DNA from: Candidatus Aenigmatarchaeota archaeon
GTDB lineage: Archaea > Aenigmatarchaeota > Aenigmatarchaeia > JACPZZ01
Assembly (NCBI GenBank): GCA_016180965.1
Contig: JACPAF010000001.1
Location: 10,111-74,110 of the forward strand
Length of the DNA stretch: 64,000 nucleotides
Reading direction: 5' to 3'
The position numbers and the translations under genes are program-made. Below the pieces are notes generated by a model. The model did not search any database. It had not been told where the DNA came from and worked only from the letters and a program-made list of their open reading frames with translations. Positions 6,373 to 50,574 of the stretch are shown here, in pieces (position 1 is the stretch's first letter; every line of letters begins with the position of its first letter).

Positions 6373-6469
6373 GGGCCCATAGCTCAGCCTGGTAGAGCAC
6401 CTGACTCTTAATTGAACTTTTGTTCATCGAGATATCAGGGAGTCGCGAGTTCAAATCTCGCTGGGCCCA
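6373..6469 (+). tRNA. tRNA-Lys-CTT: tRNA-Lys(CTT) with canonical 37/38 intron (6411-6433, 23 nt)
   Basis: Acceptor GGGCCCA/TGGGCCC, D arm GCTC..GAGC, anticodon arm CCTGA-CTCTTA|intron|A-TCAGG, T arm GCGAG-TTCAAAT-CTCGC. BHB has 3 of 4 central pairs. Confidence 0.9.
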
Positions 6470-6486
6470 ATTAAAGATGTTTTACT

Positions 6487-7404
6487 ATGATCTCCATAAA
6501 CTACACGTTCCTGGGCGATGAATCAATTGTTAAGGAATGGGGCAAGAAAGGAACTTCATCGGATATAACGATCTACGACCGCAAAGACACGGGCATTGTT
6601 AAAACATGGACACTGCCTACCGGATTTCCGGACAAAATACAATCTTTATTCCAAGCCATACAGCTTGGCGAATATGTTATTTTTCATGTATCCAAATTGG
6701 ACAAGTTCACGGGCGAGCAAATAATCGCGCTTGATGCTTTGCGAAAGGAAAAAGGTTTGTTGTGCCATTCTTACGAAGTTGATAGAAGCCTGCTGTTAAC
6801 AATGATAAAAGGAACTGTTGTTGAGAATTACAAGCTGGTGGAACTTGAGAATTTGAAAACGGAAATGGATTCGCTGGCTGCTATTCAAAAAGAAGGCGAG
6901 GCTAAAGTTGTGATAGACCATTCGTTCGAAGTTAAAGGCGTTGGCGCTGTGCTTCTGGGTAAATTGGACCGCGGAAAAATAAAAACTTACGACAATATGA
7001 AATTGTTGCCCGCGGGTTCCGAAGTAATGATAAAATCAATACAAATGCACGACGATACCGTAACGGAAGCATCGTCTCCAGCGCGCATTGGGTTAGCGAT
7101 CAAAGGTGTTGATGCAAGCGCTGTACAGCGCGGCGACGTTTTATGCAATTCTGCAGATTCCAAAGTTTCACAAGAAATAATTTTGGATTACAAACAAAAC
7201 AAATATTTTAAAGAGGATGTTAAAGAAGGCCAAACTTTCGTAGTTAATGTCGGAATGCAAATGAAGACCGCGAAAATAATTTCATCGGCTCCCATGAGGT
7301 TACAATTCATGAAACCGGTTGTTTTTGAAATCGGCGAAATTGCCGTAATATTAAGGCCGGAATCGCAGGGCGTTAGGATTGTCGGAAGTGGAAAGATAAG
7401 TTAA
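6487..7404 (+). CDS. EF-Tu/EF-1A-like protein with degenerate G domain (domain II beta-barrel retained)
   Basis: 305 aa. Central KVVIDHSFEVKGVGAVLLGKLDRGKIK...MIKSIQMHDD...ARIGLAIKGV...RGDVL matches the EF-Tu domain 2 pattern. I see no GxxxxGK[ST] P-loop in the N-terminal region. Confidence 0.6.
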   Translation: MISINYTFLGDESIVKEWGKKGTSSDITIYDRKDTGIVKTWTLPTGFPDKIQSLFQAIQLGEYVIFHVSKLDKFTGEQIIALDALRKEKGLLCHSYEVDRSLLLTMIKGTVVENYKLVELENLKTEMDSLAAIQKEGEAKVVIDHSFEVKGVGAVLLGKLDRGKIKTYDNMKLLPAGSEVMIKSIQMHDDTVTEASSPARIGLAIKGVDASAVQRGDVLCNSADSKVSQEIILDYKQNKYFKEDVKEGQTFVVNVGMQMKTAKIISSAPMRLQFMKPVVFEIGEIAVILRPESQGVRIVGSGKIS

Positions 7405-7454
7405 AAGTTTTTGACCGGATGTTTTATATATTTATTTGAAGAATAGCTTTTTTC

Positions 7455-7715
7455 ATGGTAGACCCCTACGTAGATAAGTTCAAAGACTTAAGTGTACTGG
7501 ACATAGAAACTGGGAAATTCGGTTTGCGTATAGGCTATGTAAACGGGAGCGGAAGGGCATTCATAGAGACGGATGCGGGCGAAGAACGCGTGTCTTACGT
7601 TAACCTGGGCATGCCTTCCGGCGGCTTATCTGCAGCATATGTTCTCAGCAGCCAGCTTAAGCGAGATCCGGGACTTTACAACTTCGGCAGAAGAAAAGAA
7701 GAAACACACGCCTGA
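7455..7715 (+). CDS. Hypothetical small protein
   Basis: 86-aa ORF in an otherwise empty gap. No motif recognised. Confidence 0.35.
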   Translation: MVDPYVDKFKDLSVLDIETGKFGLRIGYVNGSGRAFIETDAGEERVSYVNLGMPSGGLSAAYVLSSQLKRDPGLYNFGRRKEETHA

Positions 7716-7749
7716 TTCAATATTTCTATTCCAGATTTCAATTACTACA

Positions 7750-8613
7750 ATGGCGCTTACTGAAGGATTGTTGCTAGCATTAGTTTCAATGTTTTGCTGG
7801 GGAATTGCGGATTTTATTGTCGTAGGGCCTGTAAGGAAAATAGGCAATATCAAAACTCTGGTAATCGGCCAGGCTGTAATATTTGCCGCAATGATCTCCT
7901 ATGTTTCTCTTTTTCCTAATAACATACATTTCACCCAGCAGGCTGTATTGCTTTCGTTCCCGCCTTCGGCGCTGATCATACTCGGTTTTCTTGCACTGTA
8001 CAGGGGAATACAGGTTGGAAAGGTTTCGATTGTTGTTCCGATAGTTTCAAGCTGGTCCCTTGTTGCCGTAATCATAGGCTTTCTGGTTTTACGCCAAACG
8101 CCCACCCCACACCAGATTGCAGGTGCTTTGCTCATAGTCTCCGGAATAATCTTAGTTTCATTAAAGCTGTCTGATCTCAGGTCGTCGATAAGAAAACATA
8201 AATTAAAAGGCGTTAAAGAAGCTTTGTTGTCAATGGTTTTTTTCGGCTCTGCGCTCGCGTTCAACAAATTTGTGATCGAATACGTCGGGTGGCTTTCAGC
8301 CAGTTTCCTGTTTTCGCTGTGGCAAACCTTAATTCTGGCTGCCCTGTTCTTCGTAAGCAAGCAGGGTAAAACAAAAACCGCGGGCAATTATTTGCTTATT
8401 GCGGCTGCTGCCGGACTTTTGAACTGGTTTGGGGGATTGTCTTATAATCTTGGCATAAGCGGCGAATATCTTTCCGTGGTTTCTCCCGTTGCGTCGGCGT
8501 CCGTTTTTGTCACAGTAATACTTTCATTCATACTGTTGAAGGAGAGATTAACAAAACCACAATACGTCGGCGTGTTTTCCGTGATATTGGGAATAATCGC
8601 GATTGCCGTCTAA
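7750..8613 (+). CDS. EamA/DMT-family transporter
   Basis: About 10 hydrophobic segments in two repeats. Start moved to the ATG at 7750 (MALTEGLLLALVSMFCWGIADF); the upstream part of the track ORF overlaps the previous ORF. Confidence 0.75.
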   Translation: MALTEGLLLALVSMFCWGIADFIVVGPVRKIGNIKTLVIGQAVIFAAMISYVSLFPNNIHFTQQAVLLSFPPSALIILGFLALYRGIQVGKVSIVVPIVSSWSLVAVIIGFLVLRQTPTPHQIAGALLIVSGIILVSLKLSDLRSSIRKHKLKGVKEALLSMVFFGSALAFNKFVIEYVGWLSASFLFSLWQTLILAALFFVSKQGKTKTAGNYLLIAAAAGLLNWFGGLSYNLGISGEYLSVVSPVASASVFVTVILSFILLKERLTKPQYVGVFSVILGIIAIAV

Positions 8614-8646
8614 TGGTTTAAATACTTTCTGCACATCTGATTACTG

Positions 8647-9657
8647 ATGGCAAAACGCATACAACCTGAATACGCAAAAGAATATTGGAATGTTTTGCAA
8701 AGAGGTTTATTTTTTGAAAGTTCCATGCCTGAGATATGGGAATTTGAAAATCTGCAGGAATCCAATGATTGGATGAAAAAACATCACGCGGTTAAAAAAC
8801 GTGTATCTCTGGGCTTTCTTAAGCCCGCGATAACTTTTCAGTATGAACCGATGCCGTCCGCAATACCGGGCGAATCCAGCTTCATGTTACCGGCAACGGA
8901 AAAAGAAGTCCTGATGGCCAGGGTTTTGTACCAAAACGGCAAATTATCAGAAGAGGCCATCATGCAAAGAAATTTTAAACACAAAGAAGTTTTTTCCGGC
9001 CAATTGATACTTATTCCCACAGACGGCGCAGAAACTGCTGTCAGACACCTGGAAAGCGGCGGTTACCATGTACCATCAACGGCGATGGGAAGGAAAATCG
9101 GAATAATACACGAACTGTGCGAGCATGCAGCAACTCACATGAATCCTTCTTACACATTTGTAGTAAACTCCAAACTTGAGCGGGCGCATGCGCTTTCGCA
9201 AAATCCCAACGCGGATCAGGATTATGCAATACTTGAAGGTGCGGCTGCGCATGCGGCACAAGGCCACAGGCATACGATGGTAAACATGATAGAGACGTGG
9301 GCGTTGGACCAGTTTGGCGAAGATGGTCGTAAAATTGTGCGGGCTCAAAACATGGGCGTTCTCAATATGTTTGCTGATATTTTTAAAAAATACAAAACCC
9401 CCGAAGACATCAAGAACAACTACGGAGTTTACGTGGGTGAAATGATGGCATTTATGTCGTCGTTCCACGAATACACACTATTAGGCCAGCTTCTAACTGA
9501 ACCTGCGTACAAAGGCGGCGTTAGGAATGCCGCTGATGAGCACATAAGAGGCGCTGTGTGGAGAATGTCGCATGAACAGCTCCAAGACTTACAGGCAAGA
9601 TCAACAAAATATATGGAAACCAGAGGTTTTAGAAATGTGACGCCCGGAAAAAATTGA
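8647..9657 (+). CDS. Hypothetical protein
   Basis: 336-aa ORF. No confident family assignment. Confidence 0.5.
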   Translation: MAKRIQPEYAKEYWNVLQRGLFFESSMPEIWEFENLQESNDWMKKHHAVKKRVSLGFLKPAITFQYEPMPSAIPGESSFMLPATEKEVLMARVLYQNGKLSEEAIMQRNFKHKEVFSGQLILIPTDGAETAVRHLESGGYHVPSTAMGRKIGIIHELCEHAATHMNPSYTFVVNSKLERAHALSQNPNADQDYAILEGAAAHAAQGHRHTMVNMIETWALDQFGEDGRKIVRAQNMGVLNMFADIFKKYKTPEDIKNNYGVYVGEMMAFMSSFHEYTLLGQLLTEPAYKGGVRNAADEHIRGAVWRMSHEQLQDLQARSTKYMETRGFRNVTPGKN

Positions 9658-11064
9658 TTATAATTTCTTTACCATGTACGCGCCTTCCAAGGCGTAGCCG
9701 AGTTTCCTATAATATTCCCGCGCTCCAACGCCTGAAATGACTGCGATCTTTTCCATGTTGTTTTCTTTTGAAATTTTTTCCGCCTCTTCCAATAATTTTT
9801 TACCGAAGCCGCGGTGTTGGAATTGGTCTGGATCGAAGCTGTTACCTATACCGGTTTCTTTTCCGAATACGTGGATCTCACGAACCAATGAAGTCGCAGG
9901 TGTTATCTCCGGCCTGAAAGGGCGGGACGGGAATCGCAGACGCAATAAACCCAATAATATGTCGTTCTTCGCGTCCTCGAAGCTCAAAAATATTTCATGC
10001 CCGCCAGATGCCTGATAGTCTGTTCTCGTCAATTTTATTTCATTTTCGTCGATATGCTTTCCGTGCAACAAATTGTAACCGACTTCACGGCACCTTGTGC
10101 ATACACATTTTTGATTGTCCTGTTTCATCCGGGCTTTAACTGCGTCGCGTAAGTGCGAATATTTCGTACCGCCTACCACATACTCGGCGGGTATGTCGCG
10201 CATCACACGGGATATTCTCGCATAGCGCGGAACTATAAGTTTCAATTTTGCCAGCAATTCTATCAACTCGTCATTGGTATAGGCGTAATGTTTATCCTCA
10301 TTAAACCATTGCTGCAATTCCGTATTTTCCAAAACAAGGCAAGGATAAATTTTCACACCGTCCGGCCGTAAATCCGGTTTTTCAAATAAAATTTTAAACA
10401 TTTCCAAGTCTTTTTTTAAATCGGACCCGGGCAGGTTGCACATGTAATGGTAATAGACTTTGAATCCAGAGTCTTTCAACAATTTCGTGGACTCTATTAC
10501 GTCCTTAACAGTGTGGCCGCGTTTGGTCAATTCGTAGTTTTCATCGTCTGGAATTTGCACGCCCAATTCAACTCGTGTGGCGCCGAAACTTAACATTTGG
10601 TTTATCTGGTATTCAAGCGCCCAATCGGGCCGCGTTTCGATGCACATCGCCACACAGCGATTGTCTGCGGTTTCATTGTAATTTTTCGCGTCTTCAAGCG
10701 ATGCAGAAACGAAGCCGTTCAACCCGTCGTAACAGCCTTTGATGAAATCGTGGCGGTAATTTATGGGAGTGGCCATGAACGTTCCGCCCATCACAATAAT
10801 TTCGACTTTGTCCGTTATGTGGCCCATCGATTTTAACGCATTTACACGCGACTCAACTTGCTTGTATGGGTCGTAAGCGTCACGCATTGCGCGCATTACG
10901 ACCGGAGATTTAGGCAAATAGCTTTTAGGCGTGGGTATCTCCTTGTCAACCCCGCCCGGACAATAAATGCATTTACCCGGGCATGGAAGCGGTTTCGTCA
11001 TTACAGCTACTATGCTCACGCCGGATATTGTGCGGACTTTCTTTTTAACATTCAACTCGATCAT
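9658..11064 (-). CDS. elp3: Elp3-type radical SAM/GNAT tRNA U34 (c)m5U-forming enzyme
   Basis: 468 aa. Radical-SAM cluster CPGKCIYCPGG. C-terminal GNAT (QHRGFGKKLLEEAE). Overall archaeal Elp3 architecture. Confidence 0.85.
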   Translation of the reverse strand: MIELNVKKKVRTISGVSIVAVMTKPLPCPGKCIYCPGGVDKEIPTPKSYLPKSPVVMRAMRDAYDPYKQVESRVNALKSMGHITDKVEIIVMGGTFMATPINYRHDFIKGCYDGLNGFVSASLEDAKNYNETADNRCVAMCIETRPDWALEYQINQMLSFGATRVELGVQIPDDENYELTKRGHTVKDVIESTKLLKDSGFKVYYHYMCNLPGSDLKKDLEMFKILFEKPDLRPDGVKIYPCLVLENTELQQWFNEDKHYAYTNDELIELLAKLKLIVPRYARISRVMRDIPAEYVVGGTKYSHLRDAVKARMKQDNQKCVCTRCREVGYNLLHGKHIDENEIKLTRTDYQASGGHEIFLSFEDAKNDILLGLLRLRFPSRPFRPEITPATSLVREIHVFGKETGIGNSFDPDQFQHRGFGKKLLEEAEKISKENNMEKIAVISGVGAREYYRKLGYALEGAYMVKKL

Positions 11065-11098
11065 GCGATTAAATACATTCCCAAAGCAAGATAAGCTT

Positions 11099-11767: not shown

Positions 11768-11816
11768 ATAACCTTGTCTGTTTAAGAAAAGGTTAATCAA
11801 AATATATACAATCGGT

Positions 11817-11943
11817 GCCTGGGTGGCTCAGTGGTAGAGCGCCAGAAATTTGGCGAAACTCATAAGGCGATGTATGAGTGTTGAGCTTATGCTATGATAA
11901 CTAAGACATCTGGAAGTCGTGAGTTCGATCCTCACCCCAGGCA
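11817..11943 (+). tRNA. tRNA-Met-CAT: tRNA-Met/Ile2(CAT) with two predicted introns (30/31: 11846-11857; second approx 11866-11908)
   Basis: Acceptor GCCTGGG/CCCAGGC, D arm GCTC-AGTGGTA-GAGC, T arm GTGAG-TTCGATC-CTCAC. Removing both inserts gives CCAGA-CTCATAA-TCTGG. The first intron has a clean BHB core (CGCC/GGCG with 3-nt bulges). The second BHB is relaxed (3 of 4 pairs), so its exact junction is uncertain. Confidence 0.7.
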
Positions 11944-14844: not shown

Positions 14845-14881
14845 GAAACGGACGCATACACAATGACGTCCGTTTCTAGTT
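14845..14881. repeat. tRNA-linked bulged palindromic hairpin (family copy)
   Basis: GAAACGGACG-CATACACAATGA-CGTCCGTTTCTAGTT, ending 6 nt before tRNA-Thr +1. Confidence 0.75.
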
Positions 14882-14887: not shown

Positions 14888-14961
14888 GCCTCCGTAGCTC
14901 AATTCGGCAGAGCGAGTGCTTTGTAAGCACTAGGTTGCGGGTTCAAATCCCACCGGAGGCT
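14888..14961 (+). tRNA. tRNA-Thr-TGT: tRNA-Thr(TGT), intronless
   Basis: Acceptor GCCTCCG/CGGAGGC, anticodon arm AGTGC-TTTGTAA-GCACT, T loop TTCAAAT. Confidence 0.9.
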
Positions 14962-17567: not shown

Positions 17568-17671
17568 TGCGGTTACCGGGATTCGAACCCGGATTAAAAG
17601 CTGTCTCCGTTTTCCCCAAATTCAAGGAAAAGGCATGGGAAGCTTTTGTCCTGCCATTAGACCATAACCGC
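17568..17671 (-). tRNA. tRNA-Gly-CCC: tRNA-Gly(CCC) with canonical 37/38 intron (17603-17635, 33 nt)
   Basis: Reverse complement: GCGGTTA..AAAGC-TTCCCA|intron|A-GCTTT..CCGGG-TTCGAAT-CCCGG-TAACCGC-A. BHB central helix TTCC/GGAG with 3-nt bulges. Confidence 0.9.
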
Positions 17672-18409: not shown

Positions 18410-18490
18410 CTAGAAACATACGCTTAACAGCTAGAAGCATACCGTATACTGTATCGGTATGCTTCAGTTTACGACGCGTATGTTTCAGTT
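18410..18490. repeat. Nested pair of family hairpins upstream of tRNA-Leu
   Basis: Outer CTAGAAACATACGC...GCGTATGTTTCAGTT encloses inner CTAGAAGCATACCGTATACTGTATCGGTATGCTTCAGTT (18431-18469). Confidence 0.8.
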
Positions 18491-18512: not shown

Positions 18513-18733
18513 GCGGGGGTAGCCAAGCCCGGTCAAACTTGAGTGATGAGGTTAAGAAAACTGGCGCAACAACAAACTGACACATACATAGTATGTGTCT
18601 GGTTGCAATGCGCCTGTCTGAACAACCAATGACTAGAGGCGTCAGACTCAAGTTGAACTTTAGAAAAAAGTTTGATAGAAGAGGGAAATCTGATCTCCTA
18701 GCGAGTTCGTCGGTTCAAATCCGGCCCCCCGCA
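18513..18733 (+). tRNA. tRNA-Leu-CAA: tRNA-Leu(CAA) with D-loop intron (approx 18538-18635/7) and 37/38 intron (18653-18687)
   Basis: Exons join to GCGGGGGTAGCCAAGCCCGGTCAAA(GA)GGCGTCAGACTCAAGATCTGATCTCCTAGCGAGTTCGTCGGTTCAAATCCGGCCCCCCGCA, a typical archaeal class II tRNA-Leu. The D-loop intron has BHB core GTCA(18532-35)/TGAC(18630-33) with 3-nt bulges. Confidence 0.8.
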
Positions 18734-18821
18734 CTTTCCTTTCACTGAAAAAGCCATATTTAAACCTTGCAGAAACTCATTATTCAGTGAAAACTCAGAT
18801 AGAGTTGCGGAATTGGTGTCC

Positions 18822-19904
18822 ATGAAAGCATACCTAGGCTATTCGGTTGTCGGCGTGTTTGCGTTTAACCCAGCCGGCGCGCTATTGGACAAGGAGTTTT
18901 TCAAGAAAGACGCGAAACAGATCTCCATCAAATTAAACAACGTAAAAAACGAATTCCTGGACGAAGAACTTGTATTACTTAGAAGACTTGCAAAGAAAGG
19001 CGTAAACGAATTTTTCGGTGCATATCCCAAATCAGGCGAGTTCCAAATTGACCGCGATCCCGAATCTTTGGGCGAAAACAAAGCCAAAGGCGTTTTTCGT
19101 GAAATTGCGCTCACGGATAAGTGGGTTGTTTCGCAGGCCGAATTAAATAAAATCCTGTCAAGCGTCGGATCTGAGAGTTCCAAAGAAGAACTGCGCAACG
19201 TAGAAAAGGATAAAATAGGCATGCGCGTTGTCGGAATGATAGACGAGTTCAGCAGGAACATAAATACGCTTTCAGAACATTTGCGCGAGTGGTACGGTCT
19301 TTACTTCCCGGAGATCAACGGGCTGCTGAAGGACAATGAAAAATTCGTAATTTTCGTGGCGGATAAGACATTGCGCGGAAATTTTGAGCGCGACGGCAAG
19401 AAGTTAGACATAGAAACCGCCGGCATGGAATTCGACGAGAATGATTTAGAAAGCGTGAAACAAGCCGGTTTGACATTAAAACAAATGTATGTTGAGCGCA
19501 GGAATTTGGAAAATTATCTTGAAATACTGGGCAAAAAAATAATGCCGAATATGTCTGCAGTCGCAGGCGCATTGTTAGCGTTCAGGCTAGTATCACAGGC
19601 GGGCGGGTTGGATAAGATTGTAAAACTACCGTCGTCCACAATACAATTGCTCGGTGCCGAGAAAGCTTTATTCAGGTTTTTAAAGAAGCAGGGCAAGGCT
19701 CCGAAACACGGCATAATTTTCTACCATCCTGCCGTAATTTCAGCGCCGATACCAATACGCGGAAAAATAGCGCGTATTGTTGCGTCGAAAATAACCATGG
19801 CGGCAAGGATTGATTTCTATTCCGGCAACGACAAAAGTGCGGCTATGAAAGAAGAGTTGAACCATCTGGTAAATAATGCTTTGGCGCATTTTAGGGAAAA
19901 GTAG
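18822..19904 (+). CDS. nop5: Nop5 (Nop56/58) C/D box sRNP protein
   Basis: About 360 aa. NOP domain (LLGAEKALFRFLK...PKHGIIFYHP). Immediately upstream of fibrillarin. ATG at 18822; the track ORF starts at a TTG at 18813. Confidence 0.9.
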   Translation: MKAYLGYSVVGVFAFNPAGALLDKEFFKKDAKQISIKLNNVKNEFLDEELVLLRRLAKKGVNEFFGAYPKSGEFQIDRDPESLGENKAKGVFREIALTDKWVVSQAELNKILSSVGSESSKEELRNVEKDKIGMRVVGMIDEFSRNINTLSEHLREWYGLYFPEINGLLKDNEKFVIFVADKTLRGNFERDGKKLDIETAGMEFDENDLESVKQAGLTLKQMYVERRNLENYLEILGKKIMPNMSAVAGALLAFRLVSQAGGLDKIVKLPSSTIQLLGAEKALFRFLKKQGKAPKHGIIFYHPAVISAPIPIRGKIARIVASKITMAARIDFYSGNDKSAAMKEELNHLVNNALAHFREK

Positions 19905-19912: not shown

Positions 19913-20569
19913 ATGAAGTTAAAGGAAATTTTTCCGGGAGTCTTCCGTATAGACGGCCAGCTGGCTACAAAAAACCTGGTTAATGGAAGATCGTATTCCG
20001 AAAAAATAATAAAAATCAACGGCGAAGAGTACAGGACCTGGAACCCTGAAAAATCCAAAGCTGCTGCAGCAATTGAACGCGGGATAAAAAATTTCCCGAT
20101 AAATAAAGGCTCAAAAATCCTATATCTCGGGATTGCACAAGGCCAGACGGCTTCTTATTTTTCCGACATAATAGGCAACGACGGAATAATTTACGGGGTC
20201 GAATTTTCGGCGCGCGCGGTTAGCGATCTTGTCATCGCGTGTGAAAAAAGGGGAAATATAGTCCCCATAAAAGCGGACGCACGCAAGCCCGAGGATTATT
20301 CCTGGGTCGAAAAGGTCGACGTAATCTACGAAGATGTCGCGGATTCGGAACAAGTCGCTATATTGCTAAGGAACGTTGAGGCGTTCCTGAAAAAGGGCGG
20401 TTATGCAATGATAGGCATAAAGTCGAGAAGCATAGACGTAACGAAAGACCCAAAAAAGATTTTCGAAGAATCCCTGTCTGCCATAAAGGAAAAGATGGAA
20501 ATACTTGACTATGTTACTCTCGATCCGTTTGAAGTCGATCACGCATTTATAGTATGCAAATTAAGTTGA
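19913..20569 (+). CDS. flpA: Fibrillarin-like rRNA/tRNA 2'-O-methyltransferase
   Basis: 218 aa. EYRTWNP..SKAAAAI, ILYLGIAQGQTASY, VYGVEFS motifs. Confidence 0.9.
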   Translation: MKLKEIFPGVFRIDGQLATKNLVNGRSYSEKIIKINGEEYRTWNPEKSKAAAAIERGIKNFPINKGSKILYLGIAQGQTASYFSDIIGNDGIIYGVEFSARAVSDLVIACEKRGNIVPIKADARKPEDYSWVEKVDVIYEDVADSEQVAILLRNVEAFLKKGGYAMIGIKSRSIDVTKDPKKIFEESLSAIKEKMEILDYVTLDPFEVDHAFIVCKLS

Positions 20570-30770: not shown

Positions 30771-30928
30771 CTAGAAATATGTGTTGACAGTAGCACATAT
30801 TTCAGTTAGTAGCTGAAAACAGTCACATACAAGATGTGACTGTTTTAGTTGTAGCTAGAAACATATGAATACCAATTGCATATGTTTCAGTTAGTTACAG
30901 CTAGACTCATACTTCGTATGAGTCAGTT
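30771..30928. repeat. Tandem array of four family hairpins directly upstream of tRNA-Arg
   Basis: H1 30771-30807, H2 30813-30850 (opposite bulge polarity), H3 30855-30892, H4 30901-30928. Flanks AG|CTAGA / CAGTT are conserved, stems differ but stay complementary. H4 ends 7 nt before tRNA +1. Confidence 0.85.
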
Positions 30929-30935: not shown

Positions 30936-31051
30936 GGATCCGTAGCTCAGCCTGGACAGAGCAGCAGCCTCCTAACGAGCTTTTCCAAAAAGCTCGACCA
31001 AAAGAGAATGGAGATAGTTGAAGGTCGCGGGTTCAAATCCCGTCGGATCCG
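30936..31051 (+). tRNA. tRNA-Arg-CCT: tRNA-Arg(CCT) with canonical 37/38 intron (30975-31015, 41 nt)
   Basis: GGATCCG..GCAGC-CTCCTA|intron|A-GTTGA..GCGGG-TTCAAAT-CCCGT-CGGATCC-G. BHB core CTCC/GGAG. Confidence 0.85.
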
Positions 31052-39526: not shown

Positions 39527-40162
39527 GTGTGCCCGAATAATTCTATCAAACTTGATCCCAACAAGGACGTACTAAAAGCTAGATTGTGCGGTTTTTTGGC
39601 TGCCGACGGCAGCGTTTTCATAAGAAAGGAGACCAGAACAGGAAAAATTCACCACTCTATGAGATTTTACCCTGACAACTTAGTACTAGCTCAACTTTTC
39701 AATGACGTGCTAAAAGGCGTTTACGGCAGAGAGGCGGCGATAAAGAGTATGGGAAATTATTACGCTCTATCTTTAACTAGCAAACAAGCTGTCACAGATC
39801 TTTTATCGATAGCCAGTTTCACGTCCAAAGGTTGGACATTTCCTGAAACCATTGTTACCAAAGATGCAAAAATCGAGTGGCTAAGAGCTTATTTTGATTG
39901 TGATGGTTATGTTGGTAAAAAATACATCCAGCTGCAATCGGTCAATGAAAACGGTATAAAAGTGATACAAAAACTGTTAGAAGATTTCGGAATAGAGTCC
40001 AAAATATACGATTATACGAGAAAGAACAAGTCCTGGAACATAAATTATCTGCTGAACATAAACAAGAGGGAAATGCGTATTAAATTTTTGAGAGAAATAG
40101 GGTTCAATCACCCATTAAAAAGGAAGAAATTGGAAAGTTTAATCAATGCCGAGGTCGCATAA
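39527..40162 (+). CDS. Free-standing double-motif LAGLIDADG homing endonuclease-like protein
   Basis: 211 aa, GTG start. Two LAGLIDADG motifs (LCGFLAADGSVF, LRAYFDCDGYVG). The last 15 nt overlap the 5' end of tRNA-Ser. Confidence 0.75.
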   Translation: MCPNNSIKLDPNKDVLKARLCGFLAADGSVFIRKETRTGKIHHSMRFYPDNLVLAQLFNDVLKGVYGREAAIKSMGNYYALSLTSKQAVTDLLSIASFTSKGWTFPETIVTKDAKIEWLRAYFDCDGYVGKKYIQLQSVNENGIKVIQKLLEDFGIESKIYDYTRKNKSWNINYLLNINKREMRIKFLREIGFNHPLKRKKLESLINAEVA

Positions 40163-40320
40163 CCAGGTCAGTGCACCAGATTAAAAAAGGTGATTCTCGA
40201 AAACTGGCGGGCGCAAACAGCTAGAAGCAACAGTAAACCGAAACATGTCATAGACATGTTTCAGTCTGAACCTGCTTCAGTTGGCGATTGCCCATGAGGG
40301 TTCAAATCCCTCCCTCGGCG
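40148..40320 (+). tRNA. tRNA-Ser-CGA: tRNA-Ser(CGA) with 30/31 mini-intron (40180-40194) and 73-nt hairpin insertion in the variable arm (40214-40286)
   Basis: GCCGAGG-TC-GCAT..GTGC-A-CCAG|15 nt|T-CTCGAAA-ACTGG-CGGGCG|73 nt|ATTGCCCAT-GAGGG-TTCAAAT-CCCTC-CCTCGGC-G. Discriminator G. The mini-intron has BHB core CACC/GGTG. Confidence 0.7.
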
Positions 40321-40527: not shown

Positions 40528-40911
40528 ATGATAGCTGTTGTCGGCATTGTAGAGAATAACGGCAGGATACTGGTCGGAAAAAAGGTTTCCGGAAACAGTT
40601 TTCTTGCAGGCAAGTGGCACATACCAGGAGGCAAAGTTTTGCCCGGCGAAACGGATGAAATTGCGTTAAAGCGCGAGATGAAAGAGGAATGCGGAATAGA
40701 TGTTTCCGTAGGACGTTTTCTGGACGAATTTTACGAACCTGTCGCAGATATGCGTGCGAAATGGTTTTTGTGCTCTTGCGATGATGACAAATTAAAACCC
40801 GGCGGTGATTTGGCTGATGCCAAATGGGTTGATAAAAAAGACGCAATGGAAATCTGCGATAAAGACGCAATCGCGCGCTGGCCACGCAAAATCAAACGGT
40901 TTTTTGGTTAA
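40528..40911 (+). CDS. NUDIX hydrolase
   Basis: Start at the ATG at 40528. Nudix box GGKVLPGETDEIALKREMKEECG. Confidence 0.85.
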   Translation: MIAVVGIVENNGRILVGKKVSGNSFLAGKWHIPGGKVLPGETDEIALKREMKEECGIDVSVGRFLDEFYEPVADMRAKWFLCSCDDDKLKPGGDLADAKWVDKKDAMEICDKDAIARWPRKIKRFFG

Positions 40912-40988
40912 GCTTTTTATCAAAAAGGTTATTTTGGTTAAGCTTTTCAGGAAAAAGGTTATTTGGTTAAGCTTTTTATTAAAAAATT
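40904..40988 (+). repeat. Tandem direct repeat, about 30 nt x 2.8
   Basis: TTGGTTAAGCTTTTTATCAAAAAGGTTATT / TTGGTTAAGCTTTTCAGGAAAAAGGTTAT / TTGGTTAAGCTTTTTATTAAAAAATT. Each unit has a CTTTTT..AAAAAG hairpin. Lies between convergent genes. Confidence 0.8.
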
Positions 40989-40990: not shown

Positions 40991-41824
40991 TCATTCCCAA
41001 AATTCCTTGATTATTTCCTCGGATATCCGCGTTATGACGCGCTCAGGCACGAAAATTTCCATTGAAATGGTCTTGCCGTATTTTATTTTTTTCAATTCTT
41101 TCACGGTCCTGCGGAAATCTATTGACGCGATCCCGACCGGCAGGTGCTCGTCCATTTTCCCGTGGTTGTCGTGCATGTGTATGTGCTGGATGCGTTTACC
41201 GAATTTTTTGATGTGGTTCGAAATAGATTTCATGCCTCCGCCTATGAACGCATGGCCGATGTCAAGATTCACAGCGAGCCCGTCGACTTTTGAAATTATT
41301 TTTTGGAAGTCCTTTATCGATGACATTTCTGTGGTGTTTTCCAACATCACGACCATCGAATCACCGGCGTAATCCACCAGCTTCTTCATGTTCTCGATGT
41401 AGTTTGATATAACCTCTTTCAGCGTGCCGCGATCCGATAGCATCATGCTCTGCGAATGTGCGTGGAAAGTTATTTTTTCTATATTTATCCTCTTTCCCGC
41501 GTCTATGACCTTTTTACATTCTTCTAACCACGCGTCGCGCACTATTTCGTGCGGGCTGCCAAGATCTATCCACCACGCCGCGTGCCCGAGCGCGAACATC
41601 CTATGTTTTTTGATTATCCTGTTTATTTTGCCCGCCCTATTCGCGATTATTTTCGGCGACCCTTCCGGCTCCTCAATCCCGATTTCTACGAAATCAAAAT
41701 TAAGCGCCGCGATTTCACGTATTTCCTGCATCAAGTCCAATGAGGGATTTGTAGTTGTGCCGAACTTTGGCAGGCCTGGTTGATTGAAACGCATCTTGGA
41801 TGCGTTTCTGTCTGTCTCTACCAT
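40991..41824 (-). CDS. Sugar phosphate isomerase/epimerase (xylose-isomerase-like TIM barrel)
   Basis: 277 aa. FVEIGIEEPE, ITFHAH, LENT, NLDIGHAF, IHMHDNHG metal-site pattern. Confidence 0.7.
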   Translation of the reverse strand: MVETDRNASKMRFNQPGLPKFGTTTNPSLDLMQEIREIAALNFDFVEIGIEEPEGSPKIIANRAGKINRIIKKHRMFALGHAAWWIDLGSPHEIVRDAWLEECKKVIDAGKRINIEKITFHAHSQSMMLSDRGTLKEVISNYIENMKKLVDYAGDSMVVMLENTTEMSSIKDFQKIISKVDGLAVNLDIGHAFIGGGMKSISNHIKKFGKRIQHIHMHDNHGKMDEHLPVGIASIDFRRTVKELKKIKYGKTISMEIFVPERVITRISEEIIKEFWE

Positions 41825-41888
41825 GGAATTAGTTCTCCTAAAGCCAATTTAAATAGAAGCCTACAAAACGGTTTGTTCGGTATGTTGC

Positions 41889-41978
41889 AACAGACGCTTG
41901 GAGTATGCGTCTGTTTCGGTCAACCGCTGAATCATATGCATTTGGGAACTAGACTCGTATGATAGTATGAGTCTTGTT
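41889..41978. repeat. Two family hairpins upstream of tRNA-Val(CAC)
   Basis: AACAGACGC-TTGGAGTAT-GCGTCTGTT (41889-41915) and CTAGACTCGTATGA-TAG-TATGAGTCTTGTT (41949-41978). The latter ends 5 nt (ACGAC) before tRNA +1. Confidence 0.75.
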
Positions 41979-41983: not shown

Positions 41984-42056
41984 GGGTCCATGGTCTAGTG
42001 GTTAGGACGTCGCGTTCACATCGCGGAGATCGCCGGTTCGAATCCGGCTGGACCCA
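41984..42056 (+). tRNA. tRNA-Val-CAC: tRNA-Val(CAC), intronless
   Basis: GGGTCCA..TCGCG-TTCACAT-CGCGG..GCCGG-TTCGAAT-CCGGC-TGGACCC-A. Confidence 0.9.
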
Positions 42057-42686: not shown

Positions 42687-42759
42687 GGGCCTATGGTCTA
42701 GTGGTTAGGACGTCGCGTTTACACCGCGAAGACCGCCGGTTCGAATCCGGCTGGGCCCA
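42687..42759 (+). tRNA. tRNA-Val-TAC: tRNA-Val(TAC), intronless
   Basis: GGGCCTA..TCGCG-TTTACAC-CGCGA..GCCGG-TTCGAAT-CCGGC-TGGGCCC-A. Confidence 0.9.
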
Positions 42760-42971: not shown

Positions 42972-43012
42972 AACTGAAGCATATCGATAGTGCATACGGT
43001 ATGCTTCCAGTT
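42972..43012. repeat. tRNA-linked bulged palindromic hairpin (family copy)
   Basis: AACTGAAGCATATCG-ATAGTGCATA-CGGTATGCTTCCAGTT, ending 5 nt (GTGAC) before tRNA-Ala +1. Confidence 0.8.
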
Positions 43013-43017: not shown

Positions 43018-43106
43018 GGGCCGGTAGATCAACGGTAGATCGCCACATTGGCATTGGAAAGAGACCAAAATTGTGGAGGCTTCGGGTTCGAATCCCGACC
43101 GGTCCA
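43018..43106 (+). tRNA. tRNA-Ala-GGC: tRNA-Ala(GGC) with canonical 37/38 intron (43054-43070, 17 nt)
   Basis: GGGCCGG/CCGGTCC with G3:U70. CCACA-TTGGCA|intron|T-TGTGG. BHB core TTGG/CCAA. Confidence 0.9.
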
Positions 43107-46658: not shown

Positions 46659-46690
46659 GGTTTAATATTTGGGCGCGGACTTATAATATC

Positions 46691-47557
46691 ATGAAATTTT
46701 ATTCGGTGACCGCGATTTTGCTGGTTATTTCCACTATCATGGTTTCCGGCTGCACGGACACAAACGATGGAACTCCAGCGGTAAAAAACAATGAAATTGT
46801 AATACTGGAAAATGTCGAGGCTGTGCCCAACGAAATAAAACCGGATAGGAACTTCGCGGTCAGCGGGTTTGTTACCAACAAAGCCGCGGCAAAAACCAGC
46901 AACGTGCAAATTTCGCTTGCGGATTATTGTTCTTCGGTTTTTGACGTCAGCAAGACGTCGTGTGCGTTGACGCAGTCAAACGGATATTCTGCGTGTTTTT
47001 TTGACCTCAACCTGGACGCGAGTAAAAAATTCCAGTGGGATTTCAAGGCGCCTCCGGCAAGCCGCACAGCCGGCCAGGATTTCGATTGCAACATAATTGT
47101 TAAAACAAATTACTCCTATACAAGCCACGGTTCTGTTGGAGTCGTTCTAGCCAACGACGCGGAGATAGCTGCGCGCGAAAACGGGCCCGCGCCTGTAACG
47201 GGCGACGGGCCGGTTAAAATTCATATCACGGTGGATTCGGCGCAACCGATCGGGAAGGATGAAACGTTCGACGTCAAAATAATACTCAAAAACGAAGGCG
47301 AAGGCGAACTTGAAGGCTCGATATCAGAAGGAAATTTCAAGTACACGGCGCCGCCGGACTTTACCGGAAGCTGCGACACACCAGCGGAAATAATCATATC
47401 GGACGCTTCCAAAGAGTCCGATCCTTTCTATTGCACTTTCACGACGCCGAACTTGCTCCCTCCGCGGGTTACGAAATTTATAACGGCCGATGTAGTATAT
47501 TCGTACAAATTCACAACCATGCTGCCTGTGAAGCTGAAGGTAACTAAGCAATCTTAA
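46691..47557 (+). CDS. Putative lipoprotein, CARDB-like
   Basis: Start at the ATG at 46691. MKFYSVTAILLVISTIMVSGC lipobox-like signal. KIILKNEGEGELEG CARDB-like strand pattern. Confidence 0.6.
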   Translation: MKFYSVTAILLVISTIMVSGCTDTNDGTPAVKNNEIVILENVEAVPNEIKPDRNFAVSGFVTNKAAAKTSNVQISLADYCSSVFDVSKTSCALTQSNGYSACFFDLNLDASKKFQWDFKAPPASRTAGQDFDCNIIVKTNYSYTSHGSVGVVLANDAEIAARENGPAPVTGDGPVKIHITVDSAQPIGKDETFDVKIILKNEGEGELEGSISEGNFKYTAPPDFTGSCDTPAEIIISDASKESDPFYCTFTTPNLLPPRVTKFITADVVYSYKFTTMLPVKLKVTKQS

Positions 47558-47611
47558 GGTTTAAATAAGTGTGAATTAAATCATTATAATACGGATTATT
47601 TGGTGCGATAA

Positions 47612-49063
47612 ATGAAATTGGCTCTATTTGGTATCATTTTGGCTGTGATAGTTTCTGGTTGTACGGGTACAGGTGATTCAGGCAACACAGGAACAGGCGG
47701 ATCGGTTATCATAAAATCATTTTCTGCCGACGAAACAAATTTACAAGGCAACGACAGGACAACGCTTTCAACTGAAATTATCAACACAGGAGACTCAAAA
47801 GCCACCGCTGTTAAAATACAATTATTAGATTTGGATACGGCTTGCGCGCAACCTTCATGCGATTCGACGGAAACACAGTGGGGGTTGTCCAGCGGAAAGA
47901 CGAGCGATGTACTCACCGATTTGAGGATAAACACGCCGGGTGAAGAGGCCATAGCAAAACAATACAACTGGCGCGTGCAATCGCCAAAATTGCCGGCTAA
48001 TTTGCCACAGACCTACGATGCCAAAGCGAGAGTTTCATTCGGATATTCGACCACAGCTATCAAACAAATAAAAATTGTCACCCTATCTGAATACCAGAGG
48101 TTAAAAACGAACGGACAGACGTTGCCTGTTACTACAGCACAGCCGTCTAACGGGCCTTTAAAGATCGACGTAAGAGTGGCAGAGCCCGTCAGGATTGAAG
48201 AGGGTTCCACTACGTTCTTGCTTGTCATTGAAGTTACTAACCTGATTGGCGGAACCACGTTCCTGGCCGATAACCCGAACGACGTGTCAAAATGGAACCT
48301 GGCCAATTTGAAATTAACGCTTCCTTCAGGGCTTGCGATGGCAGAAACGAGCGGGGATTGCGCAGCCATCACAAGCAGCGTCACCATCGAGCTTTCAAAG
48401 GGCAAAAGTTACAAAACGCAATGCGAAGTCAAGACCACAACAAACATCCCGGTTTCGGTGGACAAGACCGTCAACGTTAAAGCTGATTACGGGTACTTTG
48501 TCGAATCCAAACTGTCCGTGCCTATATCGGTTATAGGAAAATCCAATTATGTCCCGCCTTCGGGCGGCGGTGCACCAGGACAGGCCGGAACAGGCACAGT
48601 AACACCTCCCGCGTCCGGCGGCTCAACTGCACCGGATACCGAACCGCCTAACACGGTTAGAAATATACAAGTCCAAAAATTCGCAGGACAACCCGGAACA
48701 GCGAGCGCGGGCAAGTGGCAATACACAATAAGTTTCCTCGAGCCATCCGACAATGTGGGCGTTGCGGGTTTTGAAATATATGTAGGCACAATCCAGCCAG
48801 CCACAGGAACTTGGAATACTGCTACTCTGGATGCCAGCAATGAAGTTAAGAAACAAGGCCTTGCATCCAATATACCGCTCGGTTCGAGAACACCTCAAGG
48901 AGGAACTGTGGAATCATTCCCACCCAACGGCGTGGCTAGATTGCTTTTAGATCCGAATACATCATATTGGATAGGCATTCTTGCTGTGGATGCCAGTGGA
49001 AACAGGGGAGACTTGTCAACATCCGCGGGTTCTGTAATCCAAATACAAACAGGTTCTTTCTAG
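47612..49063 (+). CDS. Putative lipoprotein with CARDB-like domains, Pro/Gly linker and FN3-like C-terminal domain
   Basis: 483 aa. MKLALFGIILAVIVSGC signal. STEIINTGDSKATAVKIQLLD. Linker PPSGGGAPGQAGTGTVTPPASGG. C-terminal VRNIQVQ...FEIYVG...YWIGILAVDASGNRG. Confidence 0.6.
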   Translation: MKLALFGIILAVIVSGCTGTGDSGNTGTGGSVIIKSFSADETNLQGNDRTTLSTEIINTGDSKATAVKIQLLDLDTACAQPSCDSTETQWGLSSGKTSDVLTDLRINTPGEEAIAKQYNWRVQSPKLPANLPQTYDAKARVSFGYSTTAIKQIKIVTLSEYQRLKTNGQTLPVTTAQPSNGPLKIDVRVAEPVRIEEGSTTFLLVIEVTNLIGGTTFLADNPNDVSKWNLANLKLTLPSGLAMAETSGDCAAITSSVTIELSKGKSYKTQCEVKTTTNIPVSVDKTVNVKADYGYFVESKLSVPISVIGKSNYVPPSGGGAPGQAGTGTVTPPASGGSTAPDTEPPNTVRNIQVQKFAGQPGTASAGKWQYTISFLEPSDNVGVAGFEIYVGTIQPATGTWNTATLDASNEVKKQGLASNIPLGSRTPQGGTVESFPPNGVARLLLDPNTSYWIGILAVDASGNRGDLSTSAGSVIQIQTGSF

Positions 49064-50337
49064 AATTTTTGTTTTGCGAATTCGCCCAGGCCTTTCTGCC
49101 CTGATTTTTGCATCTCAAACGAGCCTTCGAACAACGGAACTCCGTAGACGCCGTCGTAGCCCGGCTTAAATTTTAGCTCCCCATTACGCGATTTTATTAT
49201 TGCGTTTGCGATTTTTTCGTGCGTGATCTTTTTTAACTCGTTTTCAGGGACGTTCATCAACACGTTTAACTCTGTGCCAAATTGCGAGATTATTTTATCG
49301 TGTTCTTCGGTGACTTTTTTAGAGTATAATGCGTTGACACCGGTGACGTGCGATATTATCTCATACAACGGCAATAATGTTTTGAATGGTATCGCGTTTT
49401 TAGGAACAAAACCAACAGGACGGTCGGCTAATTGTTCAACACGACTGAGAACGCCTATTGTTAATCCCCGTTTGCAGCGCGGGCAAATACCATTTAATTT
49501 TTTTGTTTCAGACGGCTCTAAAGAAACGTTACAGTCTTTGTGGCCATCTAAATGGTATTTTCCATAATTCGGGTCGCACTCAATTGTATATAAAAACTTT
49601 TCCTTGTCCTTGTTTTTTATTGCATCGAAGATTTTGTTGTATGTGGGGTTTTCAATATCAAATACGTTCGCCTCTCTTCCTAACCTCCAAGGCCATGGTG
49701 AATGTGCGTCGGAATTTGAGATTAATGCAAACTTGTCCAAACTTGAAATGTTCCAGCACATCGCGGGATCCGCTGATAGGCCTGTTTCGATCGCGAAAAT
49801 GTTTTTTGTCTGATCCTGAAAACATTCTTCCACTGAGTTAAAACCGGATTTCGAACCGAAAATTGAAAACCATGGCGTAAACGAATGGGCTGGTATGATA
49901 AATGCATCTTTAGATATTGACACCACCAGTTCTGTAAATTCCGGACAGGTTATGTTTGTTAATATCGGACGTCCGTCTGCGGAAAGGTTTCCGTATCTGC
50001 TTAATTTTTCATTAATTTGGTCTACGATTTCGAAACTTGGAGCGAAAATCATGTTGTGGACTTTTTTGCTCACGCCGTTGACATAGTAAATCAGCGAAAC
50101 TTCCGATGTCAGCATAAAAGCTGTTTTCGTTTTGTTGTCCGTGAACAATCCCGTGCCATTAATTTCCTTCAATGAAGATTTCAAATCTTCCAAATGTTTC
50201 GGGTGTGTGAAATCGCCTGTTCCGAGAATGTCCAAGCCTTTCGTTTCTGCGAATTTTCCAAGCGTGTGTATGTTCATCTGGGGTGATGTGGCGCGGCTGT
50301 ATTTCGAATGTATCTGGAGGTCTGCGATAATTTTCAT
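49060..50337 (-). CDS. endoQ: Endonuclease Q-like PHP-domain nuclease with zinc ribbon
   Basis: Start moved to the ATG at 50337 (MKIIADLQIHSKYSRATSPQM...GTGDFTHP). CPRCKRGLTIGVLSRVEQL zinc ribbon. The 37 extra N-terminal codons in the track ORF overlap tRNA-Ile. Confidence 0.7.
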   Translation of the reverse strand: MKIIADLQIHSKYSRATSPQMNIHTLGKFAETKGLDILGTGDFTHPKHLEDLKSSLKEINGTGLFTDNKTKTAFMLTSEVSLIYYVNGVSKKVHNMIFAPSFEIVDQINEKLSRYGNLSADGRPILTNITCPEFTELVVSISKDAFIIPAHSFTPWFSIFGSKSGFNSVEECFQDQTKNIFAIETGLSADPAMCWNISSLDKFALISNSDAHSPWPWRLGREANVFDIENPTYNKIFDAIKNKDKEKFLYTIECDPNYGKYHLDGHKDCNVSLEPSETKKLNGICPRCKRGLTIGVLSRVEQLADRPVGFVPKNAIPFKTLLPLYEIISHVTGVNALYSKKVTEEHDKIISQFGTELNVLMNVPENELKKITHEKIANAIIKSRNGELKFKPGYDGVYGVPLFEGSFEMQKSGQKGLGEFAKQKF

Positions 50338-50372
50338 AGAGAATATTCCTTTGCCAGATGTAAAAATAGAAG

Positions 50373-50574
50373 TGGGCCCGACCGGATGATCGGCTGACAC
50401 ATCGCAGCTAGGCACACACAAGATGTGTGCCGATTTGCCGTGTGTCAAGCTTTCGAACCGGCGACCATGCCGTTGCTATCCATTGCAATTACGGCGTCTA
50501 CGCAGCTTAGTTTCGCAAGCAAATGCTTGCGGGCCTTATAAGACCGTCGCTCTACCAAGCTGAGCTACAGGCCC
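50373..50574 (-). tRNA. tRNA-Ile-TAT: tRNA-Ile(TAT) with three predicted introns (38/39: 50496-50535; variable loop: 50467-50489; T-loop 59/60: 50387-50451)
   Basis: Reverse complement gives GGGCCTG-TA-GCTC-AGCTTGGTA-GAGC-G-ACGGT-CTTATAA|40 nt|GCCGT-A|23 nt|GGTC-GCCGG-TTCGAA|65 nt|T-CCGGT-CGGGCCC-A. BHB cores: TTAT/GTAG (two G.U), GCCG/CGGC (perfect), TTCG/CGAT (3 of 4). Confidence 0.7.

Follow-up and report, generated by a model that had tools for sequence, protein, structure and literature searches.

The 64,000-nucleotide stretch of contig JACPAF010000001.1 from Candidatus Aenigmatarchaeota archaeon (hereafter the window, to whose positions all numbers refer unless a relative is named) contains 11 transfer RNA (tRNA) genes, eight of which are interrupted by 13 insertions that together amount to 520 nucleotides (nt), or 1.18 introns per gene. 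On the evidence of the sequences we are confident that these loci are functional tRNA genes of an archaeon belonging to the DPANN assemblage, and that the 13 insertions are archaeal introns removed by protein enzymes. When the insertions are taken out in silico, all eight products are standard tRNAs according to ARAGORN, and the view that the insertions behave as archaeal introns of the bulge-helix-bulge (BHB) type is supported by the motifs at their junctions and by orthologous loci in related genomes, both of which are described below.

The interrupted tRNA genes

The tRNA genes are the following; for the eight interrupted genes, the anticodon is that of the spliced form as called by ARAGORN.

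6373..6469, plus strand, tRNA-Lys(CUU), one intron; Rfam score 61 bits
11817..11943, plus strand, tRNA-Met(CAU) of the elongator type, two introns
14888..14961, plus strand, tRNA-Thr(UGU), intronless; ARAGORN, Rfam score 66 bits
17568..17671, minus strand, tRNA-Gly(CCC), one intron; Rfam score 57 bits
18513..18733, plus strand, tRNA-Leu(CAA), two introns
30936..31051, plus strand, tRNA-Arg(CCU), one intron
40148..40320, plus strand, tRNA-Ser(CGA), two introns
41984..42056, plus strand, tRNA-Val(CAC), intronless; ARAGORN and Rfam
42687..42759, plus strand, tRNA-Val(UAC), intronless; ARAGORN and Rfam
43018..43106, plus strand, tRNA-Ala(GGC) with G3:U70, one intron
50373..50574, minus strand, tRNA-Ile(UAU), three introns

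The Rfam tRNA model recovers nine of these genes at its gathering score and ARAGORN in its default mode recovers five, while the Leu and Ile genes are missed by both and were found by eye (through a T-arm match and an acceptor/D-arm match) and by means of their orthologues; a home-made scan of the window for acceptor, D-arm and T-arm signatures gave no further candidates. Predictors that allow for a single intron are misleading here. Without intron handling, ARAGORN takes tRNA-Ala for Pro, and the calls that it makes with introns allowed, in which Met appears as Leu-AAG and Ser as Phe-AAA and Leu and Ile are missing, were rejected. The Rfam alignment of tRNA-Ser, with the anticodon stem CCAGA/UCUGA and one long intron, was likewise set aside, since an intron-free orthologue in the relative L003 shows it to rest on the wrong stem, the true one being CCAGU/ACUGG.

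An initial annotation of the window had arrived at the same number of genes with the same identities, and at 13 introns in eight of the 11, with Thr and both Val genes uninterrupted. Splicing in silico together with ARAGORN and Rfam bears this out, the spliced anticodons agree and so do the outermost gene coordinates. ARAGORN, which that annotation had named as a check, sustains it for the spliced products, all of them standard, but not for the unspliced genes, where the Met and Ser miscalls and the missing Leu and Ile just described are found.

The tRNA-Ile at 50373-50574 (minus strand) deserves a separate remark, as its anticodon is UAU once spliced. In most archaea AUA is read by a CAU tRNA carrying agmatidine, and to our knowledge the UAU anticodon is found elsewhere in a few lineages, for example Nanoarchaeum and Korarchaeum.

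Splice motifs of the 13 introns

The BHB rule was coded as a central helix of 4 base pairs (bp), followed on each strand by a 3-nt bulge that is cut after its second nucleotide. The introns are given below with their position in the tRNA and their central helix, with the number of the four pairs that form.

Lys intron 1, 6411-6433, 23 nt, at 37/38; CUCU/CGAG, 3/4; outer helix of 5 bp
Met intron 1, 11846-11857, 12 nt, at 30/31; CGCC/GGCG, 4/4
Met intron 2, 11866-11908, 43 nt, at 38/39; UCAU/AAGA, 3/4
Gly intron 1, 17603-17635, 33 nt, at 37/38; UUCC/GGAG, 4/4 with one G-U; outer helix of 6 bp
Leu intron 1, 18537-18636, 100 nt, in the D-loop; GGUC/GACU, 4/4 with one G-U
Leu intron 2, 18653-18687, 35 nt, at 37/38; CUCA/AGGG, 3/4
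Arg intron 1, 30975-31015, 41 nt, at 37/38; CUCC/GGAG, 4/4; outer helix of 4 bp
Ser intron 1, 40180-40194, 15 nt, at 30/31; CACC/GGUG, 4/4
Ser intron 2, 40217-40289, 73 nt, in the loop of the variable arm; GCGC/GCGA, 3/4; inner helix of 5 bp
Ala intron 1, 43054-43070, 17 nt, at 37/38; UUGG/CCAA, 4/4; outer helix of 5 bp
Ile intron 1, 50496-50535, 40 nt, at 38/39; UUAU/GUAG, 4/4 with two G-U
Ile intron 2, 50467-50489, 23 nt, at 44/45; GCCG/CGGC, 4/4
Ile intron 3, 50387-50451, 65 nt, in the T-loop at 59/60; UUCG/CGAU, 3/4

Of the 13 junction pairs, eight therefore have a complete central helix and the other five a helix with a single mismatch. Random junction pairs of the same lengths in the window give a complete helix with a frequency of 0.020 and at least three of four pairs with a frequency of 0.153, so that eight or more complete helices among 13 would be expected with P of about 3e-11, or of about 2e-7 with three registers permitted. 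The complete helices that had been predicted for Gly, Arg, Ala, Met intron 1, Ser intron 1 and Ile intron 2 are all found, that of Gly with its one G-U; at the junctions for which mismatches or wobbles had been announced, Lys, Leu intron 2 and Ile intron 3 have three of four pairs, and Leu intron 1 and Ile intron 1 have all four with wobbles. Met intron 2 and Ser intron 2, which that account had passed over, have three of four.

Six of the introns lie at clearly non-canonical positions (30/31 twice, the D-loop, the variable arm, 44/45 and 59/60), and four genes, namely Met, Leu and Ser with two each and Ile with three, have more than one. Ile intron 1 and Met intron 2 fit solely at 38/39, where nucleotides 33-36 form the helix and the cut follows position 38, and a suboptimal fold of the Ile precursor contains the 33-36 helix of Ile intron 1; its placement at 37/38, which would leave the loop CUUAUAC, was rejected, because there the helix has one pair of four as against four of four at 38/39.

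In the mechanism that we propose, folding of the precursor would place each exon-intron boundary in a 3-nt bulge beside a 4-bp helix, as a strict or a relaxed BHB, after which the splicing endonuclease EndA would cut both bulges and an RtcB-type ligase would join the exons, as in established archaeal tRNA splicing. The two Met introns, at 30/31 and 38/39 and only 8 nt apart, would probably be removed one after the other.

Orthologous loci and intron turnover

Orthologous tRNA loci with conserved gene order were taken from up to six relatives per locus (labels L001 to L022 stand for the loci and genomes of relatives), whose contigs derive from the Logan assemblies of SRR12113384, SRR12113409 and SRR12113420. 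Across them the exons are almost invariant and the introns variable, with flanking proteins that are 77-90% identical, and the tRNA-Ile exons differ at no more than one position among four genomes. Intron-free orthologues match six of the 13 junctions exactly: both of Ser, Leu intron 2, Met intron 1, and Ile introns 2 and 3. Thus, tRNA-Ser-CGA has no intron in L003, one of 16 nt in the anticodon loop in L001, and two in other places in the window, the L003 gene fixing both Ser junctions; its anticodon stem has undergone paired changes, CCAGU/ACUGG here corresponding to CUGGU/ACCAG in L001 and L003. In tRNA-Leu-CAA the D-loop intron is kept in all six of the relatives compared, with conserved ends; intron 2 is absent from L014, which confirms its junction, and a third intron, in the T-loop, is present in L012 and L016, so that the number of Leu introns ranges from one to three among genomes. 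Met intron 1 is restricted to the window and L012, its absence from L014 and L016 confirming the junction, and its helix covaries (CGCC/GGCG here, CACC/GGUG in L012), while the helix of Met intron 2 is UCAU/GUGG in L014 and L016, complete with two G-U pairs. In tRNA-Ile the 44/45 intron is absent from L019 and the T-loop intron from L020, which confirms both junctions, and L019 carries an unrelated T-loop intron of more than 100 nt. The Val-CAC gene, intronless in the window, has an intron in L001; in the tRNA-Gly(CCC) of L014 (9068-9158, minus strand) an intron of 20 nt interrupts the anticodon stem on its 5′ side, and in the window, L012 and L016 the Gly intron is at 37/38. Read across these loci, a high intron load is typical of the lineage and is changing rapidly, introns being gained, lost and exchanged quickly among close relatives.

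Further searches added little: when metagenomes were scanned for the pattern of the Leu D-loop intron, one of the nine matches was a true tRNA-Leu (L022), a metagenome scan with the M24 peptidase gave no relatives, and an exact-protein look-up of fibrillarin returned a single 1.1-kb contig.

An alternative explanation for the interrupted loci is that several of them are pseudogenes, broken by mobile palindromes and no longer yielding a functional tRNA. Palindromes do insert in and around these genes and differ among relatives, Ser intron 2 consists of two nested elements and has a mismatched central helix, and standard predictors miss or miscall four of the genes. However, the exons are conserved almost perfectly despite a divergence of 10-23% in the flanking proteins, with paired stem changes kept; every insertion is at a junction with at least three of the four BHB pairs, which is very unlikely by chance; up to six relatives have kept the interrupted genes at the same place in the chromosome; and intron-free alleles confirm six of the 13 junction pairs. 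We consider pseudogenes very unlikely and give this explanation very little credence.

Some observations nevertheless weigh against functional genes with 13 spliced introns. The central helix is mismatched in five introns, and in Met intron 2 and Ile intron 1 the outer or inner helices are weak, with no stacked outer helix in the register used. For Ile intron 1, Leu intron 1, Met intron 2 and the Lys, Gly, Arg and Ala introns, no intron-free orthologue was found among the relatives examined, so that the cloverleaf and the BHB are the only guides to these seven junction pairs. Finally, no gene for EndA or the ligase was found, either in the window or in the related DNA, about 280 kb, in which a tblastn search with an EndA query gave no match.

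Exchange of intron sequence between genes

The core of the Arg intron is identical at 31 of 34 positions to the tRNA-Ala intron of L001, the closest relative (z = 17), and is unrelated to the tRNA-Arg intron of the same relative (z = -0.2). In L014, the Gly intron has 15 of 16 nt in common with a hairpin of the Met intron that would form part of a kink-turn (K-turn; see below) (z = 8.5), and the Ile T-loop intron of the window has short blocks in common with the Leu T-loop introns of L012 and L016, a weaker likeness (z of about 4). Closely similar introns are thus found in different tRNA species, and the Arg/Ala and Gly/Met pairs lend direct support to the transposition-like spread of tRNA introns, an idea proposed for Thermoproteales that the initial annotation had found to fit this region. 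Comparison with the relatives shows that, in the DNA itself, introns and intron modules are gained by insertion, are lost, and pass as copies from one tRNA gene to another.

What exactly is copied can be approached through a second small element, distinct from the palindromes treated in the next section:

hairpin RRCUUUUC...GAAAAGYY followed by ACCAAAAGAG; window 30978-31011 and 11769-11805, L001 3713-3746, L018 12670-12703

This element is the core of many 37/38 introns, and it is also present in the leader of tRNA-Met and, in a relative, in that of a protein gene, on the 5′ side; judged by its distribution, it is not confined to introns. In the Arg intron it appears as a module of 34 nt, which recurs in that protein gene's leader, in L018, with 32 of 34 positions identical, which implies that at least part of what moves is a small hairpin module not confined to tRNA genes. 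It could be that introns are alike across tRNAs because one small mobile hairpin module has inserted, repeatedly and independently, into pre-existing introns, and not because whole introns have moved, an explanation to which we assign slightly less than an even chance. Besides the copy that lies outside any tRNA, the L001 Ala intron resembles an intron end of the Ala type to which the module has been added, and similar hairpins with an A-rich tract are present in the Met leader. On the other hand, some of the gains are at new positions, namely 30/31 (Met and Ser), the anticodon stem of L014 Gly and the Leu T-loop (L012 and L016), where BHB flanks would have had to arise as well, and the insertion of modules and the movement of whole introns are not mutually exclusive.

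Downstream of tRNA-Ser, at 40894-40985, there are in addition three tandem units of about 30 nt (AAA.GGTT.TTTGGTTAAGCTTTT...AAAAA) that resemble elements made of a hairpin and an A-tract.

The palindromic hairpin family

Hairpins with stems of at least 9 bp number 41 in the window, compared with 10-16 in shuffled sequence, and 19 of the 41 are inside tRNA genes or at most 90 nt from one. Most of them belong to a single family of 31-32-nt palindromes, GAA[AG]C...G[CT]UUC with the tail YAGUURNNAC, whose interiors vary while staying self-complementary. The copies in and near tRNA genes are:

6332..6362, ending 10 nt upstream of tRNA-Lys
14845-14876, near a tRNA gene
18413-18486, near a tRNA gene, nested
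30904-30924, near a tRNA gene, within the stretch 30774-30924
41951-41974, near a tRNA gene, within the stretch 41786-41978
42976-43007, near a tRNA gene
50587-50618, near a tRNA gene, within the stretch 50587-50659
18577-18601, inside Leu intron 1
40221-40280, inside Ser intron 2
50411-50431, inside Ile intron 3

In 17 of the 18 upstream regions that bear a hairpin, in the window and its relatives, the stem ends 9-13 nt before the first nucleotide of the tRNA, and such hairpins also precede tRNAs of L001, L011, L016, L018 and L020. The copies are polymorphic, as at the Thr locus, where L012 has none and the window, L011 and L016 have different ones, and they nest in one another's loops. Their coexistence with the introns had been noted in the initial annotation, which correctly placed them inside insertions but counted two such introns where there are three (Leu intron 1, Ser intron 2 and Ile intron 3).

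Within intron loops, hairpins occur in Leu intron 1 (the window and L014, with an extra copy in the Leu gene of L011), in Ile intron 1 of L018 and in Ile intron 3 of the window. The Leu D-loop intron is free of them in L012 and L016, and the hairpin of Ile intron 1 has been gained in L018 only; the intron is older than the hairpin, then, because relatives have the one without the other. These GAAGCAT-type hairpins are usually later insertions into the loops of existing introns. Ser intron 2 alone looks as if it had been built from hairpin elements, as it is made up of two nested copies of the family (40221-40280), including the 3′ tail of the family. In general, these small palindromes insert both into the loops of introns and immediately upstream of tRNA genes, and they are apparently tolerated there.

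Other roles for the hairpins were considered and set aside. As promoters, with the loop at about -26, they were judged unlikely, because the Thr hairpin separates the tRNA from a TATA-like box that is conserved, and is absent from L012. On inspection for a BHB in which hairpin and tail would cut off the leader, no suitable complementary sequence was found; and as BHB introns in themselves they have an unfit bulge geometry, although strict BHB-like hits do occur in the nested palindromes of Ser intron 2.

Putative K-turn and antisense elements in the Leu and Met introns

Two of the introns contain an element with a common plan, in which an antisense stretch is followed by a box, a stem and a GA-containing segment:

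11873..11897, plus strand, element of Met intron 2: antisense UAUGAGUG (11873-11880), D′-like UUGA (11881-11884), a short hairpin, and UAU-GA to 11897
18538..18636, plus strand, element of Leu intron 1: antisense CUUGAGUG (18538-18545), D′-like AUGA (18546-18549), the stem GGUU...AACC, and AAU-GA-CUAG (18624-18636)

The loop of the Leu element holds palindromic insertions, among them the hairpin 18577-18601, and L012 and L016 have short versions without insertions. The motif antisense-NUGA-stem-NNN-GA is conserved in Leu intron 1 of six genomes and in Met intron 2 of four, that is, in 10 introns. In a K-turn, one strand has GA beside a canonical stem and the other has GA after a 3-nt bulge, the two forming tandem G-A pairs, and as read from the 10 introns the motif fits this consensus, with an arrangement like that of a box D′/C′ pair.

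The antisense of the Leu element (CUUGAGU within CUUGAGUG) pairs with A31-G37 of the anticodon loop of its own tRNA, and minimum-energy folds form this duplex; that of the Met element (UAUGAGU within UAUGAGUG) pairs with A31-A37, over 8 bp in L014 and L016, and the minimum-energy fold of L016 forms it. The two differ as the anticodons differ, CUUGAG pairing with CAA and UAUGAG with CAU. In box C/D RNAs, methylation falls on the fifth paired position upstream of box D or D′ (N+5), and in both Leu and Met the fifth nucleotide upstream of the D′-like box pairs with C34. The proteins of such a system are encoded in the window, by nop5 at 18813-19904 (plus strand; Pfam Nop, E = 3.6e-49) and fibrillarin at 19913-20569 (plus strand; Pfam annotation), and tRNA-Leu(CAA) is immediately upstream of this gene pair in the window, L011, L012, L014, L016 and L022. 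Before being spliced out, the Leu D-loop intron and Met intron 2 probably have some role; in each, the antisense beside the K-turn would set the wobble C34 at the position of box C/D methylation.

A guide function meets several difficulties. Each intron has a single K-turn and not the pair of C/D and C′/D′ motifs that efficient archaeal box C/D methylation normally needs, the antisense duplexes are short, at 7-8 bp, and no Rfam family matches the stretches of Leu intron 1 and Met intron 2. For Leu intron 1 as a full box C/D small RNA (sRNA), the box spacing and the missing C′ box argue against, and the candidate was rejected. We present the K-turn introns as a lead and make no claim that they belong to the box C/D family.

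These same features would agree with another possibility, to which we give a minority share of belief, that K-turn and antisense together do not guide methylation but act in a structural way or as a chaperone, for instance as a kink, bound by L7Ae, that shapes the precursor for the endonuclease, the complementarity in Met being perhaps the usual pairing of loop and intron. The lone K-turn lacking a terminal C/D pair, the shortness of the duplexes and the failure to match an sRNA family all suit such a device, and the pairing of anticodon loop and intron belongs to normal BHB anatomy in introns of the 37/38 type. Nevertheless, the Leu intron is in the D-loop, 15 nt from the anticodon loop, so its 7-bp match to positions 31-37 plays no part in the BHB of that intron; Leu and Met have an identical register with respect to the D′-like box, and it obeys N+5 at C34; and the Met duplex excludes the BHB helix, much as the guide duplex reportedly excludes the BHB in the tRNA-Trp precursor.

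If the guide function is accepted together with what was seen of the palindromes, tRNA introns in this lineage could be seen as both landing sites and raw material: palindromes would enter their loops, pile up upstream and at times create introns, with Ser intron 2 as the candidate, and the Leu D-loop and Met 38/39 introns would have been recruited as cis-acting guides of box C/D type with a single K-turn that methylate C34 before splicing. This wider scheme is speculative, and we would sooner bet against it as a whole than for it.

Neighbouring endonuclease-like genes and the host

A free-standing open reading frame (ORF) resembling LAGLIDADG endonucleases abuts the most remodelled of the tRNA loci:

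39527..40162, plus strand, LAGLIDADG endonuclease-like ORF; Pfam LAGLIDADG_3, E = 3.8e-19

Its stop codon is inside the first 15 nt of tRNA-Ser, and in the closest relative a normal promoter takes its place. Comparable ORFs abut tRNA genes in L011 (6680-7423) and L012 (1536-2333, minus strand), and another lies about 0.9 kb from a tRNA in L020 (18484-19335); the ORFs beside tRNA genes have at most 31% mutual identity. As a separate matter, inteins were seen in two protein genes (window 59808-63794; L014 17614-21083): the gene of a secretion-type ATPase carries one with a LAGLIDADG domain, and the class I aminoacyl-tRNA synthetase carries one in L014 (1520 amino acids) and none in the window (950 amino acids).

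The DNA around the tRNA genes is ordinary cellular archaeal DNA of about 44-46% G+C, and the protein genes of the window include, in addition to those for this synthetase, Nop5 and fibrillarin, those for arginyl-tRNA synthetase (ArgRS) and an M24 peptidase. By protein and locus matches the host falls with metagenome-assembled genomes (MAGs) of Candidatus Aenigmatarchaeota (DPANN) and not with Thermoproteales. The best genome matches of ArgRS are a MAG named "uncultured archaeon" at 90% identity and Candidatus Aenigmatarchaeota MAGs at 73% and 65%, and the matches of Nop5 and of an EndoQ-family protein agree, one of them, for the EndoQ-family protein, being 100% identical on a 316-kb NCBI contig labelled Candidatus Aenigmarchaeota archaeon.

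Significance

In summary, this is a known phenomenon in a lineage for which it was previously undescribed, and it extends an extreme intron load in the style of Thermoproteales to a DPANN phylum that looks mesophilic and has small genomes. As routine finders miss or mislabel four of the 11 tRNA genes, it is also relevant wherever genome bins of DPANN archaea are said to lack tRNAs. At protein identities of 65-90%, the relatives record gain, loss, shift and exchange of introns at single loci, and as a series they are material on which the spread of archaeal tRNA introns, a question left open by the work on Thermoproteales, could be tested. If it is true that the K-turn introns guide the methylation of C34, they would represent introns kept for a function and a natural box C/D guide of half size.

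Comparison with known systems

That tRNAs with several introns outside 37/38 are established in Thermoproteales and other archaea, as the initial annotation had stated, agrees with the literature (PMC4033280), which includes DPANN lineages (PMC3239211; PMC5829648). In Thermoproteales, multi-intron tRNAs with up to three introns and with common intron sequences have been described (Sugahara et al. 2008 and Fujishima et al. 2010, as summarized in PMC4033280 and PMC8450103), and their tRNA genes have 0.84 introns each on average, the highest load being 71 introns in 46 genes, as against an archaeal mean of 0.21 (PMC8450103); the load found in the window, 1.18, is at the high end of the Thermoproteales range. 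The two systems resemble each other in having up to three BHB introns per gene, many of them non-canonical with a relaxed BHB, in the similarity of introns across tRNA species, and in a comparable load. They differ in that the Thermoproteales are hyperthermophilic crenarchaea, whereas the host here is a DPANN archaeon with about 44% G+C from metagenomes of groundwater type, and in that the exchange is visible here between genomes that have diverged by 10-23% in protein.

Among DPANN archaea, the disrupted tRNA genes of ARMAN-1/2, Nanoarchaeum equitans and Woese- and Pacearchaeota have been linked to an epsilon2 EndA or to an alpha4 EndA with an L3 loop (PMC3239211; PMC5829648). Aenigmatarchaeota are not among the genomes analysed in those two studies, and the literature searched holds no description of multi-intron tRNAs for them. 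The present case is like the other DPANN cases in its non-canonical and multiple introns and in the incomplete tRNA sets that standard predictors give, and unlike them in that no split or permuted tRNA is seen.

In Euryarchaeota, the intron of the tRNA-Trp precursor acts as a box C/D guide that directs Cm34 and Um39 (Clouet d'Orval et al. 2001 and Singh et al. 2004, reviewed in PMC7994747), and in Pyrococcus the wobble bases of tRNA-Leu(CAA), tRNA-Met and tRNA-Trp are all targets of box C/D sRNAs, the Trp guide alone being intronic (PMC7994747). Like the tRNA-Trp intron, the Leu and Met elements would combine a K-turn with an antisense that puts the wobble C34 of their own tRNA at N+5, guide duplex and BHB being mutually exclusive. 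Unlike it, they appear to have one K-turn of D′/C′ type in place of the full C/D and C′/D′ set, their hosts are tRNA-Leu(CAA) and tRNA-Met, and the Leu element is in a D-loop intron and not at 37/38.

Finally, the tRNA-Thr locus of Caldiarchaeum subterraneum is heterogeneous, with a 1.8-kb element encoding a recombinase and a scattered tRNA fragment (PMC3293823). There, as here, intron gain and the remodelling of a tRNA locus have taken place over a short evolutionary time and in connection with mobile elements; the agents, however, are of another kind, in the present case palindromes of 30-70 nt without ORFs and free-standing LAGLIDADG genes that abut tRNA genes.

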